Shown: positions 2,888-52,779 of the stretch, one piece after another
Layout: each line of letters begins with the position of its first letter
Position numbering within the stretch: position 1 is the stretch's first letter
DNA from: Escherichia coli
Lineage (GTDB): Bacteria > Pseudomonadota > Gammaproteobacteria > Enterobacterales > Enterobacteriaceae
Length of the DNA: 64,000 nucleotides
NCBI RefSeq assembly: GCF_011045215.1
Contig: NZ_CP049201.1
Strand: one strand, 5' to 3'
Notes under the pieces: model-generated
The model's input: the letters and a program-made list of their open reading frames with translations, nothing else
Told to the model about the DNA's origin: nothing
Databases searched by the model: none
Made by a program: the position numbers and the translations under genes

Positions 2888-4367
2888 CACCATTCCGTCG
2901 AATACGCTGGTTCCGTTGTTTTATGCGGAAATGGATAACTCGGCGGCGAATACTGCACAGGACAGCGGAGCATCGCTGCTGATTGGTCATGCCAATAACG
3001 GTGCAGAGATTGTTGCCAACAGTCTGGTACTGATGCCGTCGGCAGACTATGCACGCCAGATTTGTGGTGCGGGAAGTCAGCTGGCGCGTATGGTCGAGGC
3101 TTATCGCCAGACCGACCCGTTTGGTGAGCTGTATGTGATTGCCGTTCCTGAATCCACAGGCGCGGCGGCAACGGTTACGCTGACGGTGACCGGGGCGGCA
3201 ACCGAAACCGGCACGGTGAATGTCTATGTGGGACGTACCCGCGTGCAGGCTCCGGTGACCAACGGCGATAACGTCACGACGATTGCCAGCAGTATCAAAG
3301 ATGCCATCAATGCCGTTCCGGCCCTGCCGTTTACGGCTTCATCTTCGGCAGGCGTGGTCACACTGACCGCGCGTCATAAGGGGCTTTGCGGGAATGAAAT
3401 TCCTGTCAGCCTCAATTACTACGGCTTTGGTGGGGGCGAAGTGCTGCCAGCGGGCGTACAGATTGCCGTGGCGACGGGTACCGCCGGAACGGGTGCTCCG
3501 GTTCTCACCGGCGCGGTGGCTGCAATGGCGGATGAGCCGTTTGATTATATCGGCCTGCCGTTCAACGACACGGCCTCCGTTAACACGCTGATGACCGAGA
3601 TGAACGATACCAGCGGTCGCTGGAGCTATGCGCGTCAGCTGTATGGTCATGTGTATACGGCAAAGATCGGCACGCTGTCAGAACTGGTGACCGCAGGTGA
3701 CCAGTTTAACCAGCAGCACATTACCCTGGCGGGGTACGAAAAAGAGACCCAGACGCCTGCCGACGAACTGGCGGCAAGCCGTACCGCCCGCGCAGCGGTG
3801 TTTATTCGCAACGATCCGGCACGTCCCACGCAGACCGGTGAGCTGGTGGGTATGCTGCCTGCGCCGAAGGGGAAACGGTTCACGATGACCGAACAACAGA
3901 CCCTGCTGTCTCATGGCGTGGCAACGGCGTATGTCGAAAGCGGGGTACTGCGCATTCAGCGTGATGTCACCACGTACAGGAAAAACGCTTACGGGGTTGC
4001 GGATAACAGCTACCTAGACAGTGAGACTCTGCATACCAGCGCGTATGTACTGCGCAAACTGAAATCCGTCATTACCAGTAAGTACGGGCGTCACAAGCTT
4101 GCCAGTGACGGTACCCGCTTTGGTCCCGGTCAGGCGATTGTCACCCCGGCGGTGATCAAAGGGGAACTGCTGGCAACCTACCGTCAGCTTGAGCGTGCGG
4201 GGATCGTGGAAAACTACGCACTGTTTAAGCAGTACCTAGTTGTGGAGCGTGATGCCAGCGATCCGAACCGCCTGAACACGCTGTTCCCGCCTGACTATGT
4301 TAACCAGTTGCGTGTCTTTGCCGTGGTTAACCAGTTCCGTCTTCAGTATTCAGAGGAGTCCGCATAA
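2871..4367 (+). CDS. phage contractile tail sheath protein
   Basis: 498 aa; size and sequence character typical of Mu/P2-type sheath proteins; followed by tube and chaperone genes. Confidence 0.9.
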   Translation: MTISFNTIPSNTLVPLFYAEMDNSAANTAQDSGASLLIGHANNGAEIVANSLVLMPSADYARQICGAGSQLARMVEAYRQTDPFGELYVIAVPESTGAAATVTLTVTGAATETGTVNVYVGRTRVQAPVTNGDNVTTIASSIKDAINAVPALPFTASSSAGVVTLTARHKGLCGNEIPVSLNYYGFGGGEVLPAGVQIAVATGTAGTGAPVLTGAVAAMADEPFDYIGLPFNDTASVNTLMTEMNDTSGRWSYARQLYGHVYTAKIGTLSELVTAGDQFNQQHITLAGYEKETQTPADELAASRTARAAVFIRNDPARPTQTGELVGMLPAPKGKRFTMTEQQTLLSHGVATAYVESGVLRIQRDVTTYRKNAYGVADNSYLDSETLHTSAYVLRKLKSVITSKYGRHKLASDGTRFGPGQAIVTPAVIKGELLATYRQLERAGIVENYALFKQYLVVERDASDPNRLNTLFPPDYVNQLRVFAVVNQFRLQYSEESA

Positions 4368-5127: not shown

Positions 5128-7035
5128 ATGGCTGATAATTTTCAGCTGAAAGCCATCATCACCGCCGTTGACAGGCTATCCGGCCCGCTTAAAGGTATGC
5201 AGCGTCAGCTTAAGGGATTTCAGAAAGAAGTCTCCAGCCTTGCTCTGGGCGCTGCCGGGGCGGGTACTGCAATAATGGGGGCACTGGTACTCCCTGTAAA
5301 ATCAGCCATCACCCTTGAATCGAAGATGGCTGATGTCCGCAAAGTGGTGGACGGTCTGGATACGCCGGATGCGTTTAAGGCCATGACGGAGCAGGTGCGT
5401 GACCTGTCAACCGAACTGCCTATGTCGGCGGAAGGTATCGCTGAAATCGTGGCGGCGGGTGGTCAGGCCGGGATTGCACGTGATGAACTGATGCAGTTTG
5501 CCACTGATGCGGTGAAGATGGGCGTGGCCTTTGATACCACGGCTGAAGAGTCCGGGCAGATGATGGCCCAGTGGCGTACTGCGTTTAATATGACGCAGGA
5601 TGAAGTGGCCGGGCTGGCTGACAAAATCAACTACCTTGGTAATACCGGCCCGGCGAACGCGAAGAAAATCTCCGATATTGTTACGCGTATTGGTCCTTTA
5701 GGTGGTGTTGCAGGTGTGGCTTCCGGCGAAATCGCGGCAATGGGGGCAACCATTGCCGGGATGGGCGTGGAGTCAGAAATTGCCGCCACAGGGATCAAGA
5801 ACTTCATGCTTTCCCTGACCGCGGGAAATTCTGCGACAAAATCGCAGAAACAGGCATTGCGTTTTCTGCGGATCAATCCGAAGAAATTAGCTGCTGATAT
5901 GCAGAAAGATGCCCGGGGCACCATGCTATCTGTACTGGATGCGATGGCTAAAGTGCCTAAAGAAAAACGGGCAGCTGTGCTGAATGCCCTGTTCGGGAAA
6001 GAGTCTCTGGGCGCGATAGCACCTCTGCTGACTAACCTTGATTTGTTGCGTACCAACTTCAGGCGGGTTGCGGATTCCCAGCAGTATGGCAGTTCGATGC
6101 AGAAGGAATATGCTTCGAGGGCAGCGACGACGGAAAACCAGCTTTTACTTCTGCAAAATCAACTTGATGCCATTTCTTCCACGCTGGGGGAAACGTTTCT
6201 TCCTGAGGTTAATGATGGTCTTGAAGCGGTAAAACCGCTCCTTGAGGAAGTGAGAACGTTTGTCCGTGAAAACCCGGAGCTCGTTAAGACCATTGCTAAA
6301 ATCGGTCTGGCCTTACTGACGGTGGGAGCCGCTGCAGGCTCTTTGTCCAGAATTATGAAAGTTCTCGGCGGTGTGATGAATATGACGCCTGCTAAGGGGC
6401 TGATTGCTCTTCTGGTTGGTGGCGCTTACCTCATTATTGATAACTGGGAAACCGTAGGTCCTGTCATAAAAAAAGTCTGGCACGTGATGGATGAAACGGC
6501 GCAGGCGATGGGGGGATGGGAAACTGTTCTGAAAGCGATTGCCCTGTTTATGGCAACCAAATGGGTTGCTGACGTTACCAAATCCATTACCGCAGTGACC
6601 AGAGAGATGCGTACGCTGGGGAAGGTATCGGCAGAAACGGGATTGATGGGGAAAGGCCGCGGCTTTATCGGGAAGGCCGGGGTATATGGTTTTCTGGGAA
6701 CCCTGATGTATGAGCCGGTTAAAGATACTCTGGAAAGTGTTGTTCCTGAAGATACGGTTAACTGGCTGGATAATAAAGGGCTGTTTCTGGCTTCAGACTG
6801 GACGCCTTTTTTTGATCGTAAAGAGTACGAGCAATATCAGGCCAGCCTGAGTCAGTACAAACCCAATGTTCCGCTGTTGAATCCATCTTCTTCCATGACA
6901 CAGCACAGCGAGCTGAAAGTCACGTTCGAGAATGCTCCGCCAGGTATGAAGATAATTGATGTACCGGACAAAGCCGATCCCCTGATGAAAATCACGCACG
7001 ATGTGGGGTATTCCCCTTTTCGTTTTCCACGATAA
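5128..7035 (+). CDS. phage tail tape measure protein
   Basis: 635 aa, Ala/Gly-rich with a hydrophobic central segment; canonical position. Confidence 0.85.
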   Translation: MADNFQLKAIITAVDRLSGPLKGMQRQLKGFQKEVSSLALGAAGAGTAIMGALVLPVKSAITLESKMADVRKVVDGLDTPDAFKAMTEQVRDLSTELPMSAEGIAEIVAAGGQAGIARDELMQFATDAVKMGVAFDTTAEESGQMMAQWRTAFNMTQDEVAGLADKINYLGNTGPANAKKISDIVTRIGPLGGVAGVASGEIAAMGATIAGMGVESEIAATGIKNFMLSLTAGNSATKSQKQALRFLRINPKKLAADMQKDARGTMLSVLDAMAKVPKEKRAAVLNALFGKESLGAIAPLLTNLDLLRTNFRRVADSQQYGSSMQKEYASRAATTENQLLLLQNQLDAISSTLGETFLPEVNDGLEAVKPLLEEVRTFVRENPELVKTIAKIGLALLTVGAAAGSLSRIMKVLGGVMNMTPAKGLIALLVGGAYLIIDNWETVGPVIKKVWHVMDETAQAMGGWETVLKAIALFMATKWVADVTKSITAVTREMRTLGKVSAETGLMGKGRGFIGKAGVYGFLGTLMYEPVKDTLESVVPEDTVNWLDNKGLFLASDWTPFFDRKEYEQYQASLSQYKPNVPLLNPSSSMTQHSELKVTFENAPPGMKIIDVPDKADPLMKITHDVGYSPFRFPR

Positions 7036-9512: not shown

Positions 9513-10060
9513 TGAGGACGATTGAAGCCATGCAGCGACAACTTCTCGGCCTGATTGGGCGGGCAGTGGTGAAAAGTATCAGCGCCGCCACGAAATGTCA
9601 GACCGTGGATGTGTCCCTGATTGCCGGTGAACCCAAAGCCGGGGTTGAACATCTTGAACCCTACGGTTTTACCGCAAGGGCAAACAGCGGTGCGGAAGCG
9701 GTGGTGTTGTTTCCGGATGGCGACCGTTCTCATGCGGTGGTTGTTACGGTGTCGGACCGGCGCTACCGCCTGAAAGGGCTGCAGACGGGTGAGGTGGCTG
9801 TCTATGACGATCAGGGGCAGTCTGTGACGCTGACCCGGGAGGGGATCGTGGTGGACGGTGCAGGTAAAACGATCACGTTTCGCAATGCGCCCAGAGCACG
9901 TTTTGAAATGGACCTTGAAGTGACCGGACAGGTGAAAGACCTGTGCGACTCCGGCGGCACTACCATGTCAGCGATGCGGCTTGCCTATAACGGGCATCGT
10001 CACAGAGAGAACGGTCAGGGCAGTAACACCGACAAACCTGATAAAGCGATGGAGGCATGA
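9512..10060 (+). CDS. baseplate assembly protein V (spike, Mu gp45-like)
   Basis: 182 aa; position between the hub and gp46-like genes. Confidence 0.7.
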   Translation: MRTIEAMQRQLLGLIGRAVVKSISAATKCQTVDVSLIAGEPKAGVEHLEPYGFTARANSGAEAVVLFPDGDRSHAVVVTVSDRRYRLKGLQTGEVAVYDDQGQSVTLTREGIVVDGAGKTITFRNAPRARFEMDLEVTGQVKDLCDSGGTTMSAMRLAYNGHRHRENGQGSNTDKPDKAMEA

Positions 10061-10485
10061 TGGAACTGTGGCTGACGGTGAACGGTAAACGCACCTGCGC
10101 CAGCGCACCGCTGGATCCGCTGACCCGCGCCGTGGTGATTTCCATGTTTACCTGGCGGCGGGCGGAGCCTGATGACAACGCCGACGTCCCGATGGGATGG
10201 TGGGGGGATACCTGGCCTGCGGTACAGAATGACCGTTACGGCTCCCGACTGTGGCTGCTTCAGCGCAGCAAACTGACCAATCAGCTGGTGCAGACGGTAA
10301 GGGGGTATATCCGCGAATGCCTGCAATGGATGATTGATGACGGCGTGGTGTCCCGTATTGATCTGGATATCCGCCGCACCGGGATTAATGAGCTGGGTAA
10401 CAGTATCACCCTCTGGCGTCGTGACGGACCGATAATGATTTCTTTTGATGATCTGTGGAGTGCGATAACGCATGGCGGACAGTGA
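10057..10485 (+). CDS. phage GP46 family baseplate protein
   Basis: 142 aa; baseplate module position. Confidence 0.7.
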   Translation: MMELWLTVNGKRTCASAPLDPLTRAVVISMFTWRRAEPDDNADVPMGWWGDTWPAVQNDRYGSRLWLLQRSKLTNQLVQTVRGYIRECLQWMIDDGVVSRIDLDIRRTGINELGNSITLWRRDGPIMISFDDLWSAITHGGQ

Positions 10486-11530
10486 ATTTCAGCGCCCGAC
10501 GCTGGCAGAAAATATCAGTATGCTCCGTAACGATTTATTCGCCAGGCTGGACGTCAGCGACACGCTCCGGCGCATGGATGAAGACGTGCGGGCAAAGGTG
10601 TATGCGGCGGCGCTGCATACGGTTTACGGTTACATCGATTATCTGGCAATGAACATGCTGCCTGACCTGTGCGATGAGTCCTGGCTGGCGCGACATGCTG
10701 CGATGAAACGGTGTCCGCGCAAGGGGGCCACGGCTGCCAGCGGGTATATGCGCTGGGAAGGTGTCAGCGATGGCCTGAAGGTGACCGCCGGGAGCGTGAT
10801 TCAGCGCGCTGACCTGGTTCAGTACACGGCAACTGCTGATGCAACCAGCTCCGGTGGTGTCCTGCGCGTGCCGATCACTTGCTCAAGTGCAGGCGCGGTC
10901 GGTAACGCTGACGACGGTACGGCATTAATCCTGGTCACGCCGGTGAATGGTCTGCCGTCTTCCGGTGTTGCAGATACCCTGACTGGCGGATTCGATACTG
11001 AAGATCTGGAAACGTGGCGCGCCCGCGTCATTGAGCGGTATTACTGGACGCCTCAGGGCGGGGCTGACGGGGACTATGTCGTCTGGGCTAAAGAAGTGCC
11101 CGGCATTACCCGCGCATGGACATACCGTCACTGGATGGGAACGGGAACTGTCGGTGTGATGATTGCCAGCAGTGACCTGATTAATCCCATTCCGGAAGAA
11201 TCAACGGAAACGGCGGCAAGACAACATATCGGGCCACTGGCCCCGGTGGCAGGCTCTGATTTGTATGTGTTCAGGCCGGTGGCACATACGGTGGATTTTC
11301 ATATCCGCGTGACGCCGGACACACCGGAAATACGGGCTGCCATCACCGCGGAGTTGCGTTCGTTCCTGCTGCGTGATGGTTATCCGCAGGGAGAACTGAA
11401 GGTATCGCGTATCAGTGAGGCGATTTCCGGTGCGAACGGGGAATACAGCCATCAGTTGCTTGCACCGGCAGACAATATCTCCATTGCAAAAAATGAACTG
11501 GCGGTTCTGGGGACGATTTCATGGACGTGA
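10472..11530 (+). CDS. baseplate J-like protein (Mu gp47 / e14 JayE-like)
   Basis: 352 aa; size and sequence character of the baseplate J family. Confidence 0.85.
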
Positions 11531-32041: not shown

Positions 32042-32254
32042 AGAATAACTTTTACATTCACGTTTTATTAAATAGGTCAGAAGGAAGATTTATATATCCC
32101 TGTGTTTTTCATAGCAAGATGCATTATGTATTGCTCACCCCGAAGGAGATGAAGGTTTAATTACAGAAAGATTATTTTCACAGGAAGTAAACATGACTCA
32201 TGTTTAATGCCTTTATATATAAAACTCATCCTCTCAATTGTCAGGAGAATTAGC

Positions 32255-32485
32255 ATGAATACTATCTGTTCTTTAATTGTTGTGGTTACACTGTCTTTAT
32301 TATCATTCAGTAGCGTCGCCAAAACGATTACTGCCGTCGGTTCAACCATTGACAGCACTGAAAAAGAAATTTCTTTACAGGCAGAAAAACAAGGGAAATC
32401 ATATAAAATTCTGGGCGCGTTTTTTAAGAACAGAGTTTATATGATAGCAAAGTTAACACCAGTCAGTAAAAATGATGCTTCATAA
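32255..32485 (+). CDS. DUF1471 (YdgH/BhsA/McbA-like) small secreted protein
   Basis: Signal peptide MNTICSLIVVVTLSLLSFSSVA, about 76 aa; CAGGAG SD 8 nt upstream. Confidence 0.55.
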   Translation: MNTICSLIVVVTLSLLSFSSVAKTITAVGSTIDSTEKEISLQAEKQGKSYKILGAFFKNRVYMIAKLTPVSKNDAS

Positions 32486-32769
32486 GGCTCATGGTATAAT
32501 TTTAAGACATGATCAAGAAGCACGTCTATTGATTCAAAATTATCATTATGATGGAAATGGAATGCCCGACAAATGACGCTACACCCACCTTCTGTACCAG
32601 TCGTTCTGCTAATTCTACCGATGCTTCGGTCTGGAGTAGTAAAGTAATATTGGACACAGTTTTATTTTCTCTCTTTTTCGAGGGCTGTATATCAACAGGA
32701 AGAATACATCCCTAAGCGGTTAATGCTGGCGTAATCAATAGACCAGCATTAATCACAGATGATTACCAA

Positions 32770-32842
32770 TCAGACAGAAATGGTTAAATCGTCGAATTCA
32801 TATTTAATACGTTTTCTTACGCCGCTGAACAGCTTGAAAAGG
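32770..32842 (-). pseudogene. remnant of an rpmJ-paralog (ykgO-like) 3' end
   Basis: Closely similar to the ykgO 3' end and its downstream flank at 51391-51470 (encodes ...AVQRRKKTY* versus ...AVQGRKKKR*); the upstream coding sequence is missing. Confidence 0.45.
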
Positions 32843-32908
32843 ATGCATATTTTAAATATCAGTGAAATGAACAGTTTATTGCCGTTATTAATAGAAATGG
32901 AGGGATAA
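32843..32908 (+). CDS. putative 21-codon small ORF (MHILNISEMNSLLPLLIEMEG), copy A
   Basis: AAAAGG-ATG; conserved with copy B at 52160-52225 inside a 120-bp repeat of about 90% identity. Confidence 0.3.
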   Translation: MHILNISEMNSLLPLLIEMEG

Positions 32909-33185
32909 ATACGCGTATTCTACTGTTGCAACAAAAACAACGATATTGATCGGTTTTCATAATGAAGTAACCTGACAGATATAAAAATGTTGATTGAGGC
33001 TAAATTCCCGGATGAAGGTTGTTGAGGGAGCCAGGTAGTTTTTTCTTTTGGGTGATCTCCATTGCTGGATAGTCCCCTTGTACAGATAAGTCCGCTCTTT
33101 CTCGCTCAAAGCGGCCCCTGGAATTGAACGCAGAGTGACTACCTGACACAATATTGCACAGTGAAGAGTCGGTCGTTGTTAACGT

Positions 33186-42675: not shown

Positions 42676-42689
42676 TGCATTGAATGATA

Positions 42690-42718
42690 AAAATGGCGCA
42701 AATACAGCGCCATTTTTA
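42690..42718 (+). terminator. rho-independent terminator of yagU
   Basis: AAAATGGCGC-loop-GCGCCATTTTT hairpin with a T-run, 15 bp after the stop. Confidence 0.7.
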
Positions 42719-42863
42719 TAGGTTAAAAACATTGCTTTTTATATTCTGATGCAGATAGCCAGTGAGTATATCGTGCCACTTCAGGATGATGTAGATCCGA
42801 AGAACGCTACAGAAGAGAGGCATTGTTGCTGGCAAATACAAGAAGTATCGGGTTTTGTTGCCC

Positions 42864-42899
42864 CTAAAAACGAAGCCCCGCTATTACAGTAGGCGGGGC
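42864..42899 (-). terminator. rho-independent terminator of ykgJ
   Basis: GCCCCGC-(11 nt)-GCGGGGC hairpin followed on the minus strand by TTTTT. Confidence 0.6.
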
Positions 42900-50422: not shown

Positions 50423-51176
50423 TTACAGGTGCATTCAGTTTCCTTAGTAAACCGGAAGTAAATAAGATACGTAGTACATATCAATAAAGGTTAAACGAGA
50501 TTAAGTTTAATTATTTTCGATTGGGCTTAAATTTATGTTTTTTTCCCGATGAGTGTCAATATGTGAACGAAAAAGGAATTCAATGGTTAAGTCAATATTT
50601 AGAAAAAACTGAAAATATTGCTTTTTTGATAAGAAGAAAAAGACATTTAGTTTCATAAGGTTATTGGCAATATAACGTTCATTTCTTACTTGCATTTTAT
50701 ATTGGTCAGGAACTTTGCCCTGAAGTGTTAGGAATAGTCTTAATGCGCTGTGTGATGGACTAGTAAAAAAACAAGTTTTAACGGTAAGGGATAGAATATA
50801 AAACTATGATGAGCTGTCATTGAAGATGATTTGCCAATCAGTAAGATATTTTAATGGATTAACATGCCGCACAAAATGGTTACAGGTGTTCATTCCAATA
50901 AGTGATGGAAAATTGAATGGGCGTATGTACGTCATCTGTTCGGTAAGCCCCCAAGAGCCAGATTAAGTGAAGTTAAACGAAGGCTGCCAGCTGTCACAGG
51001 AACGATGGCCTCTTTGTCAGGGCACTGAGTGCAGTTATCTGTGCGCCTTACTCTAACTGGCACTCGAACGTCGGCGACGGGGGTACCGGTGGATCAGACT
51101 GTTCCTGTGGCGTAAACGTTTTTATGTTAGTACCAACAGATTTACCACATTTATCATCTTAACAGTTTGAGTGAAA

Positions 51177-51404
51177 ATGCAGGCTGCGCCGCAAAGGGAG
51201 GAGACTGAGTGGCGTGTTCAGTCTAAAAGAGAGTTGATGCCAGCATACAGGGGCGAAGCTGGTCAACAAGTCAACATTAAGATAATGGAATATTCGGAGA
51301 GAAACGTCAGGCAGTTGGCCTCAAATGAACAGGAAGAATATATCCGCAGGAAAATTAATGTTGGTGTTATAAACACACCAACATTAAACCGATCTGATTA
51401 TTAA
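51177..51404 (+). CDS. hypothetical small protein (ykgL-position ORF)
   Basis: ORF between ecpR and ykgO; first ATG at 51177 (track ORF begins with GTG 51171); no motif recognised. Confidence 0.3.
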   Translation: MQAAPQREETEWRVQSKRELMPAYRGEAGQQVNIKIMEYSERNVRQLASNEQEEYIRRKINVGVINTPTLNRSDY

Positions 51405-51438
51405 TCAGACAAATATCGTTAATTCGTCGAATTTTAAA

Positions 51439-51579
51439 TCAACGTTTTTTCTTACGACCCTGAACGGCCTTAAAACGTGGATTAGATTTACAAATCACAT
51501 ATAGCCGTCCTTTTCGCTTCACAATCTGACAGTCTGGATGGCGTTCTTTTGCGGTACGAAGAGAGTTAAGAACTTTCAT
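51439..51579 (-). CDS. ykgO: ribosomal protein L36 paralogue (zinc-independent type), YkgO/RpmJ2
   Basis: 46 aa [46 protein letters not shown]; ATG overlaps the ykgM stop (ATGA); below the ORF-track size cut-off. Confidence 0.85.
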
Positions 51580-51842
51580 CACGCCCCCTTTTTCGTGCTA
51601 ACAAAACGACCAAAACGTTGGGTGAATCGTGCAACATTTCCTTCTGATGCCACTGTTCTCAGCTTCCCTGTATAGAACGGGTGCGATTTAGAAGAGACAT
51701 CAATTGTCACGTATGGATACGTTACGCCATCCAGCTCAATCTCACGGTCTGTTTTGATAGTCGAGCCGATTTTAAAGTACTCATCAACACTGGTGTCGTG
51801 GAACACCACAGTACGATACTCAGGATGGATATTGGGTTTCAT
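51579..51842 (-). CDS. ykgM: ribosomal protein L31 paralogue type B, YkgM/RpmE2
   Basis: [59 protein letters not shown]...; start taken at the ATG for MKPNIH. Confidence 0.85.
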
Positions 51843-51853
51843 CATTTTCACCT

Positions 51854-51871
51854 GTTATGTTATAACATAAC
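51854..51871. promoter_or_regulatory. Zur box upstream of ykgM-ykgO
   Basis: Perfect 18-bp palindrome GTTATGTTATAACATAAC, 12 bp upstream of ykgM; matches the Zur operator form and the known Zur control of this operon. Confidence 0.7.
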
Positions 51872-52159
51872 CGTAAAGATACATGCTCATCCGGATCATT
51901 TCAACACCCAATCCCTGTGACCCTTTGTGGATGTGGAATTTCCGCAACGGGGAACTCTGGCATTGTTAGCAGCCGTTGGCGACGCTCCCATAAACGCCTG
52001 GATGAGTGATTGATGATGGTTTTGCTGAGAGTATGGATTTTTCGAGAATGGAGGTTATCTCCACTTTACTGGCCGATGATTTATCGCAGTATGATTGATT
52101 ACCTGACAGCGTGTATTCCTCTCCCACGGATATAATAATTACTTACAAAAAGGGAGAGG

Positions 52160-52225
52160 ATGCATATTTTAAATATCACTGAAGTGAACAGTTTATTGCC
52201 GTTATTAATAGAAATGGAGAAATAA
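52160..52225 (+). CDS. putative 21-codon small ORF (MHILNITEVNSLLPLLIEMEK), copy B
   Basis: GGGAGAGG-ATG; the peptide is conserved with copy A despite nucleotide substitutions. Confidence 0.3.
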   Translation: MHILNITEVNSLLPLLIEMEK

Positions 52226-52779
52226 ATAGGCGTATTCTACAATTGCGACAAAAACAACGATATTAATCAGTTTATGACTGATTTGTTGTACTTTATTCTC
52301 TTTCATTGGTACTTCCTCGCTTTAAAAAAGAGCGCACTTCGTAAGTGCCCTTATATAAATAACGAGTTTGGTCAACCAATTTTTTGACATGTATCACAAA
52401 TTTGAATAGATGTATTACATCGGCTATCTTTTATTGCACCAACGTCATTGATATATGTCGCCTGAAGTCAGTTCCGGGAATGAGTCTGATCTCAAGACTG
52501 GCCCAGTCCTGGCGTTGATTGGCGCTGAGGAGCATATCGCATCTCATTATAATGTCGTATCTCCTGGGGTGTTATACAAGATATCGTTGTTGGTAACCTG
52601 GGCGAGGAATTGAGCTCTATTAAACCGTCAACTATGCCGGATACATACTGGATTACACTGAAGGCACGCCTTATGAGAGAACGTGCCGCAGTGACGGGTT
52701 AATTATCTGAAAGAATTTGTGAGGCTGTATCGGTTACTCATTGATTTGATAGTTTTACTCTCGGGAGAGTAATAGATAT

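Follow-up and report, generated by a model that had tools for sequence, protein, structure and literature searches.

The segment at 32691-32956 of the window (the whole stretch of 64,000 nucleotides of Escherichia coli contig NZ_CP049201.1 that was analysed) is very probably a non-functional relic of a second ykgL-ykgO-ykgM-ykgR locus, with a small plus-strand ORF that is accidental and a right-hand piece that was presumably kept young by exchange with the intact locus. The main value of the analysis lies in a correction: the apparently conserved small ORF is the shadow of ykgR on the other strand, a gene that the initial annotation of this DNA had overlooked. The structural half of that annotation, a paralogous relic of the ykgO/ykgM locus, was right, as could be seen from the blastn matches and the junction between them; the functional micro-protein at which it had hinted was not supported. 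The relic combines elements of known kinds (a ykgR pseudogene that is annotated in RefSeq, fragments of ykgO and ykgL, and a short repeat that recombines with its parent locus) and is in that sense ordinary and essentially already annotated. Its only demonstrable present-day consequence is the short repeat that it has in common with the intact locus.

Architecture of the relic and of the intact locus

Comparison with RefSeq genomes and with K-12, together with the ORFs of the window, identified the second locus (copy B) as the standard E. coli ykgL-ykgO-ykgM-ykgR locus. The features of this locus and of the relic (copy A) are collected in Table 1. The relic was aligned to the intact locus by blastn in two pieces: i) 32691-32840 matched 51325-51475 (73.5% identity over 155 nt, 4 gaps, E 4e-19); and ii) 32840-32956 matched 52157-52273 (91.5% over 117 nt, no gaps, E 1e-43). 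Beyond these two matches no further similarity was found between the neighbourhoods of the copies. The similarities that had been reported before, of 32770-32842 to the 3' end and flank of ykgO and of 32843-32955, at about 90%, to a segment upstream of ykgM, thus hold in this dot-plot-type comparison, and the left piece was found to reach the 3' end of ykgL, some 80 nt further to the left than the position 32770 at which the relic had been taken to start. The two matches abut in copy A, and in the intact locus they are separated by 681 nt (51476-52156), in agreement with the earlier estimate of about 0.7 kb. This interval holds codons 1-34 of ykgO, the whole of ykgM, the Zur-box palindrome, the region upstream of ykgM and most of the hairpin in the ykgR 3' region. 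At the same junction, related alleles carry 9 extra nt (AAAAGCAGA).

The ykgM-ykgO operon encodes zinc-independent paralogues of the ribosomal proteins L31 and L36 and is repressed by Zur. Copy A resembles the intact locus in the arrangement of the ykgO 3' end, the spacer between ykgO and ykgL, and the ykgL 3' end, whose order and orientation are unchanged. It differs from the operon in that it has lost ykgM, the Zur box and codons 1-34 of ykgO; the rest has diverged by 26%, contains indels and cannot code for a ribosomal protein. The pattern search recovered the Zur box upstream of the intact ykgM only, with none at copy A, and where a member of the family would have a complete 46-codon ORF downstream of ykgM and under a Zur box, ykgO' has 12 codons and a stop left. 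The ykgL' and ykgO' fragments were without annotation in the RefSeq genomes inspected, although they lie beside the annotated ykgR pseudogene, and their description is of use for annotation.

We propose that the second locus lost the remainder of ykgO and the complete ykgM, along with the Zur-regulated promoter of the latter, through an internal deletion of 681 nt, and that ykgR was cut off upstream by another breakpoint, so that its 48-nt 3' UTR and its final 22 codons remain. The right piece would have stayed young (about 5% divergence in the UTR, against about 26% in ykgL'/ykgO') through recombination or gene conversion with the intact locus at a distance of 19 kb. An origin of the breakpoints from an att site or a tRNA fragment was considered and rejected, since the window contains no tRNAs and the boundaries show no meaningful repeats. 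A match of 9-10 nt (ACCTGACAG), located to the right of the relic and to the left of the hairpin in the intact locus, was compatible with chance.

Table 1. Features of the relic (copy A) and of the intact ykg locus (copy B), in coordinates of the window
Feature	Position	Strand	Evidence
ykgL', decayed 3' end of a second ykgL copy, one frameshift, stop lost	32691-32769	+	blastn, alignment
Remnant of the ykgL-ykgO intergenic spacer	32770-32803	.	blastn, alignment
ykgO', last 12 codons and stop of a second L36 type B gene (PFQAVQRRKKTY, then stop)	32804-32842	-	translation, blastn
Deletion junction, 681 nt of the intact locus absent	32840-32842	.	abutting blastn matches
Copy of the 48-nt ykgR 3' UTR (stop codon to hairpin), 2/48 differences from 52157-52204	32840-32887	-	alignment
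ykgR' pseudogene, codons 12-33 and stop (KPINIVVFVATVEYAYLSLHFY, then stop)	32888-32956	-	translation, NCBIfam NF041474, PGAP
21-codon ORF, copy A, judged to be a chance ORF	32843-32908	+	ORF list, translation
Intact ykgL	51171-51404	+	RefSeq/K-12 comparison, window ORFs
Intact ykgO (L36 type B)	51439-51579	-	RefSeq comparison, window ORFs, translation
Intact ykgM (L31 type B)	51579-51842	-	RefSeq comparison, window ORFs
Zur-box palindrome (TGTTATGTTATAACATAAC), just upstream of ykgM	51853-51872	.	pattern search
Hairpin in the ykgR 3' region, 9-bp stem (UCCUCUCCC / GGGAGAGGA)	52117-52160	-	stem comparison, fold
21-codon ORF, copy B	52160-52225	+	window ORFs
Intact ykgR, 33 aa (MKENKVQQISHKLINIVVFVAIVEYAYLFLHFY)	52205-52306	-	K-12/RefSeq annotation, window ORFs, NF041474

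Distribution of the two copies

The intact locus was found in 5062 of the 5426 complete E. coli genomes and the full-length relic in about 912. The relic alleles fall into two classes that were defined by identity bands: about 374 genomes carry an allele that is at least 99% identical to that of the window, and about 536 one that is identical at roughly 94%. Outside E. coli the core of YkgR was traced with a degenerate DNA pattern, which finds only those loci that keep VVFVA.VEYAY; it recovered E. albertii and Escherichia sp. E1V33, plus two tiny contigs. The arrangement ykgR-ykgM-ykgO is intact in E. albertii. In E1V33, ykgR is followed by an integrase-like ORF of 333 aa (10450-11451 of locus L009) in place of ykgM/ykgO. 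Similarity to the window stops directly after the hairpin, a pattern suggestive of an island that was inserted at this point or replaced the original sequence. The same pattern (VVFVA.VEYAY) gave no match to a second, relic-type copy in the E. albertii and E1V33 genomes. Since the intact locus occurs in nearly all of these E. coli genomes and in E. albertii, and the relic in about 912 genomes only, the intact arrangement is ancestral and copy A is derived and degenerate.

The two tiny contigs belong to assemblies of unrelated Firmicutes, Sulfoacidibacillus thermotolerans (403 nt, L007) and Alkalicoccobacillus porphyridii (264 nt, L008), are 98% identical to the E. coli ykgR region, and are probably contamination with E. 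coli DNA.

The conserved block is the 3' part of ykgR

On the minus strand, the block that is conserved between the two copies corresponds to the 3' UTR of ykgR (52157-52204), the stop codon and codons 33 down to 12 (52205-52273). YkgR is a known small membrane protein, for which expression, detection and cross-linking to SRP have been reported (PMC7549839; PMC12648545). The 91.5% identity of the right piece is thus identity to the 3' UTR and codons 12-33 of ykgR (b4671, NF041474). Codons 1-11, the start codon and the promoter region are lacking from the remnant, the homology ending at codon 12, and its translation revealed an in-frame TGA directly upstream (32957-32959). With the NCBIfam model for YkgR (NF041474, curated cut-off 40 bits) the 22-aa remnant scored 44.6 bits, over profile positions 14-33, and the intact ykgR of the window 78.1 bits. 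As the remnant scores above the cut-off of the model but is without a complete 33-codon ORF, it should be considered a pseudogene and not a member gene. In each of the six RefSeq genomes inspected, an O157:H7 strain among them, PGAP calls the 69 nt of 32888-32956 'small membrane protein YkgR, incomplete, missing N-terminus'.

The differences in ykgR between E. coli and E. albertii (Sd 5, Nd 4; pS 0.27, pN 0.05) and between E. albertii and E1V33 (Sd 8, Nd 1) give a pN/pS between species of 0.03-0.19, and the remnant differs from the intact ykgR mostly at synonymous positions (Sd 5, Nd 1-3). These substitution counts clearly point to purifying selection on ykgR, on the minus strand. The identity of the right piece is high because the piece is ykgR, which is under such selection, and presumably also because of recombination or conversion between the copies.

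The ykgR stop codon is followed, after 45 nt, by a G+C-rich hairpin. Its stem is kept in E. coli, in E. albertii (about 5160-5205 of locus L006) and in E1V33 (about 9970-10015 of locus L009), with G-U changes only and no compensatory pairs across the three species, and a fold of 126 nt that contains it had a z of -2.2. The hairpin is not followed by a U-tract and is therefore not a classical intrinsic terminator; it may mark the 3' end of the ykgR mRNA.

The plus-strand ORF of 21 codons

Both copies indeed carry an open plus-strand ORF of 21 codons, with the translations MHILNISEMNSLLPLLIEMEG (copy A) and MHILNITEVNSLLPLLIEMEK (copy B), the former sharing its frame with an ORF of 49 aa that begins at 32759. 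Each of the two overlaps ykgR in antisense by 21 nt and lies for the remainder in the ykgR 3' UTR. The initial annotation had considered the peptide to be conserved despite nucleotide substitutions, and a functional micro-protein that is kept in both copies would account for two ORFs that are open, equal in length and identical at 18 of 21 residues, for the GGAG that ends 3 nt before the ATG in copy B, and for the unusual similarity between the copies of the 48 nt that contain most of the ORF. We nevertheless hold such a protein to be very unlikely indeed. The 18 identical residues follow from 62 identical bases out of 66, and the four differences between the copies are all nonsynonymous (S/T, M/V, G/K; Sd 0, Nd 4; small counts), an outcome that has a P of 0.012 under strong purifying selection (omega 0.1) and of 0.48 under neutrality, so that conservation of the peptide as such is not what the substitutions reflect. 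Further replacements (L to F, L to W) occur in K-12 and in PapRG-06-5 (L001), and the comparison with E1V33 yielded Sd 2 and Nd 5 (pN/pS about 0.5, again with small counts).

The frame itself is not maintained in homologous loci either. Two orthologous loci from outside E. coli were compared: the one of E. albertii lacks the ATG, carries a deletion of 2 nt and is interrupted by an in-frame TAA, and in E1V33 the stop is lost (TAA to CAA), which results in an ORF of 50 aa in which four residues differ. Within E. coli, the ATG is ATA in all three sampled alleles (L003, L010, L011) of the commoner copy-A class, that of about 94% identity. The disrupted orthologues, an outcome of the kind that the initial annotation had named as refuting its proposal, by themselves already largely refute the reading of this ORF as a micro-protein. 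The SD sequence that was thought to precede both ORFs holds weakly for copy B, where the GGAG is located within the 3' arm of the 9-bp hairpin (plus-strand GGGAGAGG), and not for copy A, from which the deletion removed GGGAGAGG and where AAGG alone abuts the ATG.

The length of the ORF carries little information, as 61 ORFs of 20 aa or more overlap the surrounding 4 kb and an ORF of 21 codons is thus no more than can be expected by chance here. No family of NCBIfam was matched, and a literature search for the peptide MHILNI found no paper. A search by sequence of the initiation peaks in Table S1 of Stringer et al. (10.1101/2021.07.02.450978) gave no entry in the part of the table that was covered, which is a weak result because that part is incomplete, the table relates to one growth condition and its coordinates are off those of NC_000913.3 near 310 kb. 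The ORF resembles the validated small proteins of E. coli (those established by ribosome profiling and tagging and annotated in K-12) in its length of 21 codons, its ATG and its intergenic/antisense site, but it differs from them in that the frame is not kept in orthologues, synonymous bias is lacking and the K-12 annotation has no plus-strand feature between ykgM and ykgR. Judged by its sequence, it is very probably an accidental reading frame, a by-product of the ykgR tail on the opposite strand, that does nothing.

Uneven divergence and probable exchange between the copies

The relic appears to have a mosaic history, its two pieces differing in age. In the ykgL'/ykgO' piece, copies A and B differ at 38-41 of 152 positions (about 26%), to be compared with 48-50 of 153 between E. 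coli and E. albertii. For codons 12-28 of ykgR the corresponding numbers are 5-6 of 52 between the copies, 4 of 52 between E. coli and E. albertii and 6 of 52 between E. coli and E1V33; for the 48-nt ykgR 3' UTR they are 2-3, 14 and 6 of 48, respectively. Divergence in the left piece (41/152) and in the UTR (2/48) is clearly unequal (Fisher P = 0.00045), with a sharp break at the deletion junction. Going by these counts, the left piece looks nearly as old as the split between E. coli and E. albertii, and the UTR piece younger than the split between E. coli and E1V33. For the coding portion the similarity is accounted for in part by constraint on YkgR; for the UTR it is not. From the discordant divergence we infer gene conversion or recombination that was limited to the shared block of 117 nt; the junction of the 681-nt deletion and the already diverged ykgL'/ykgO' sequence would halt a conversion tract on the left.

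A constraint specific to E. coli would also render the UTR closer between the copies than between the species. The shared 48-65 nt would then have been selected in E. coli, and not converted, either as a young E. coli-specific protein of 21 aa, encoded opposite the ykgR 3' UTR, or as an RNA element by which the relic cross-talks with the ykgR mRNA, and we consider this very improbable. Among the copy-A alleles the UTR part is just as variable as the remainder, and B-type states occur in patches; both observations speak for exchange with the intact locus and against selection on the relic.

Exchange between the copies is also suggested by a hybrid single locus that was found in 3 of the 5426 genomes, namely in the strains wlxctx60, 6EVA and GF4-3 (the loci are on NZ_AP045833.1, L004 2432-2864; NZ_CP053258.1, L013 4001-4437; and NZ_CP138428.1). 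The order of genes in these hybrids is: LysR, SDR, hypothetical gene, ykgL'/ykgO' remnant, intact ykgR and fdeC. Missing is the 19-kb interval that in our window carries the ecp operon (pilus genes) and ykgM/ykgO. The three hybrids share one junction, with the 9 extra nt AAAAGCAGA (about 2575-2590 of L004), and one mixed pattern of A and B states, and they encode a YkgR protein that is identical to the standard one, all differences being synonymous. The hybrid locus would most simply have arisen when recombination between the two copies deleted the interval; possibly it is instead the older state, and the 19 kb were then acquired by Campbell-style integration through one crossover in ykgR. With the same junction and the same state pattern in all three, these genomes count as one event, or possibly as an arrangement of greater age. 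Because the hybrids are explained most simply by inter-copy recombination, the relic, which forms a repeat pair of 117 nt with the intact locus, can be regarded as a recombination marker in the variable region that flanks the ykg locus on its proA/tRNA-Thr side.

In GF4-3 the 9-mer GAACAGCTT is present three times in tandem (L013, about 4090-4130). The alleles compared indicate that the deletion junction itself is unstable.

Other potential products of the relic

In principle, the 48-65 nt common to both copies (3' UTR and final codons of ykgR) might constitute a functional RNA or DNA element that is under selection in each of them, acting as a 3'-UTR regulator or as a trans-antisense transcript from copy A; in the latter variant, plus-strand read-through from the BhsA-like gene at 32207-32485 through copy A would produce an RNA with about 91% complementarity to the ykgR mRNA over 117 nt. 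The distances between the copies in the UTR are indeed smaller than the 6-14 of 48 found between species, CGTTATTAATAGAAATGGAG is invariant in all B-type loci, in the hybrids and in most of the A alleles examined, other species included, and no terminator-like site was found between the plus-strand gene upstream of copy A and the relic. The variation within copy A does not spare this part, however, with 4 variable sites in the first 65 nt versus 5 in the last 52 nt (three alleles), and copy A is devoid of the hairpin, the only conserved structure. The relic is moreover absent from about 83% of the E. coli genomes. A search of 30000-55000 against Rfam 15 (E <= 1) gave nothing at either copy, the only matches being IS009 and a sub-threshold CssrB, and scans for promoters and terminators around both copies returned counts at the level of shuffled sequence. 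As recombination between the copies, which is supported by the hybrid loci, explains the similarity without function, we regard a selected element as highly unlikely and retain the reading of a non-functional relic.

The 92-aa gene at 32207-32485 (plus strand), which reads towards the relic, is hypothetical in RefSeq (WP_001301751.1 in O157:H7), and its match to the BhsA stress-protein model is weak and sub-threshold (22 bits, with a cut-off of 90). The Rfam family IS009 (RF02111) is present in full length between the copies, at 42681-42879 on the plus strand (189 bits, E 6e-46).

That the relic still yields a small protein from the minus strand is extremely improbable. Such a product could be the truncated C-terminus of YkgR, whose frame has the upstream TGA and is without a start codon, or the translation of a 33-aa ORF in an alternative frame (32859-32960, minus strand; MKTDQYRCFCCNSRIRVFIPPFLLITAINCSFH), the ATG of which was created at the right-hand breakpoint of the ykgR remnant. 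The alternative frame is open in all six copy-A alleles examined and encodes a hydrophobic stretch, but no SD-like sequence precedes its ATG, it has no family match and no PGAP call, and it differs at four residues between the allele classes (QY to HH, F to S, F to L).

Genomic surroundings of the relic

The left boundary of the relic differs by strain: in one strain a gene for an AbiEii/AbiGii toxin lies directly to the left, and in another a truncated LysR gene and tRNA-Thr (L011 1-275, NZ_CP098210.1; L003 2118-2348). In the window, similarity to most genomes begins only at about 30211, with a different island to the left of it. Matches to plasmids were found in 14 places in all. Among the records deposited as plasmids, NZ_AP023209.1 (pMTY18781-4, 68.5 kb) contains the chromosomal block ecpC-ecpR-ykgL-ykgO-ykgM-ykgR-fdeC, with a ykgR region that is 100% identical to that of the window; this record could represent an excised chromosomal circle or an assembly artefact.
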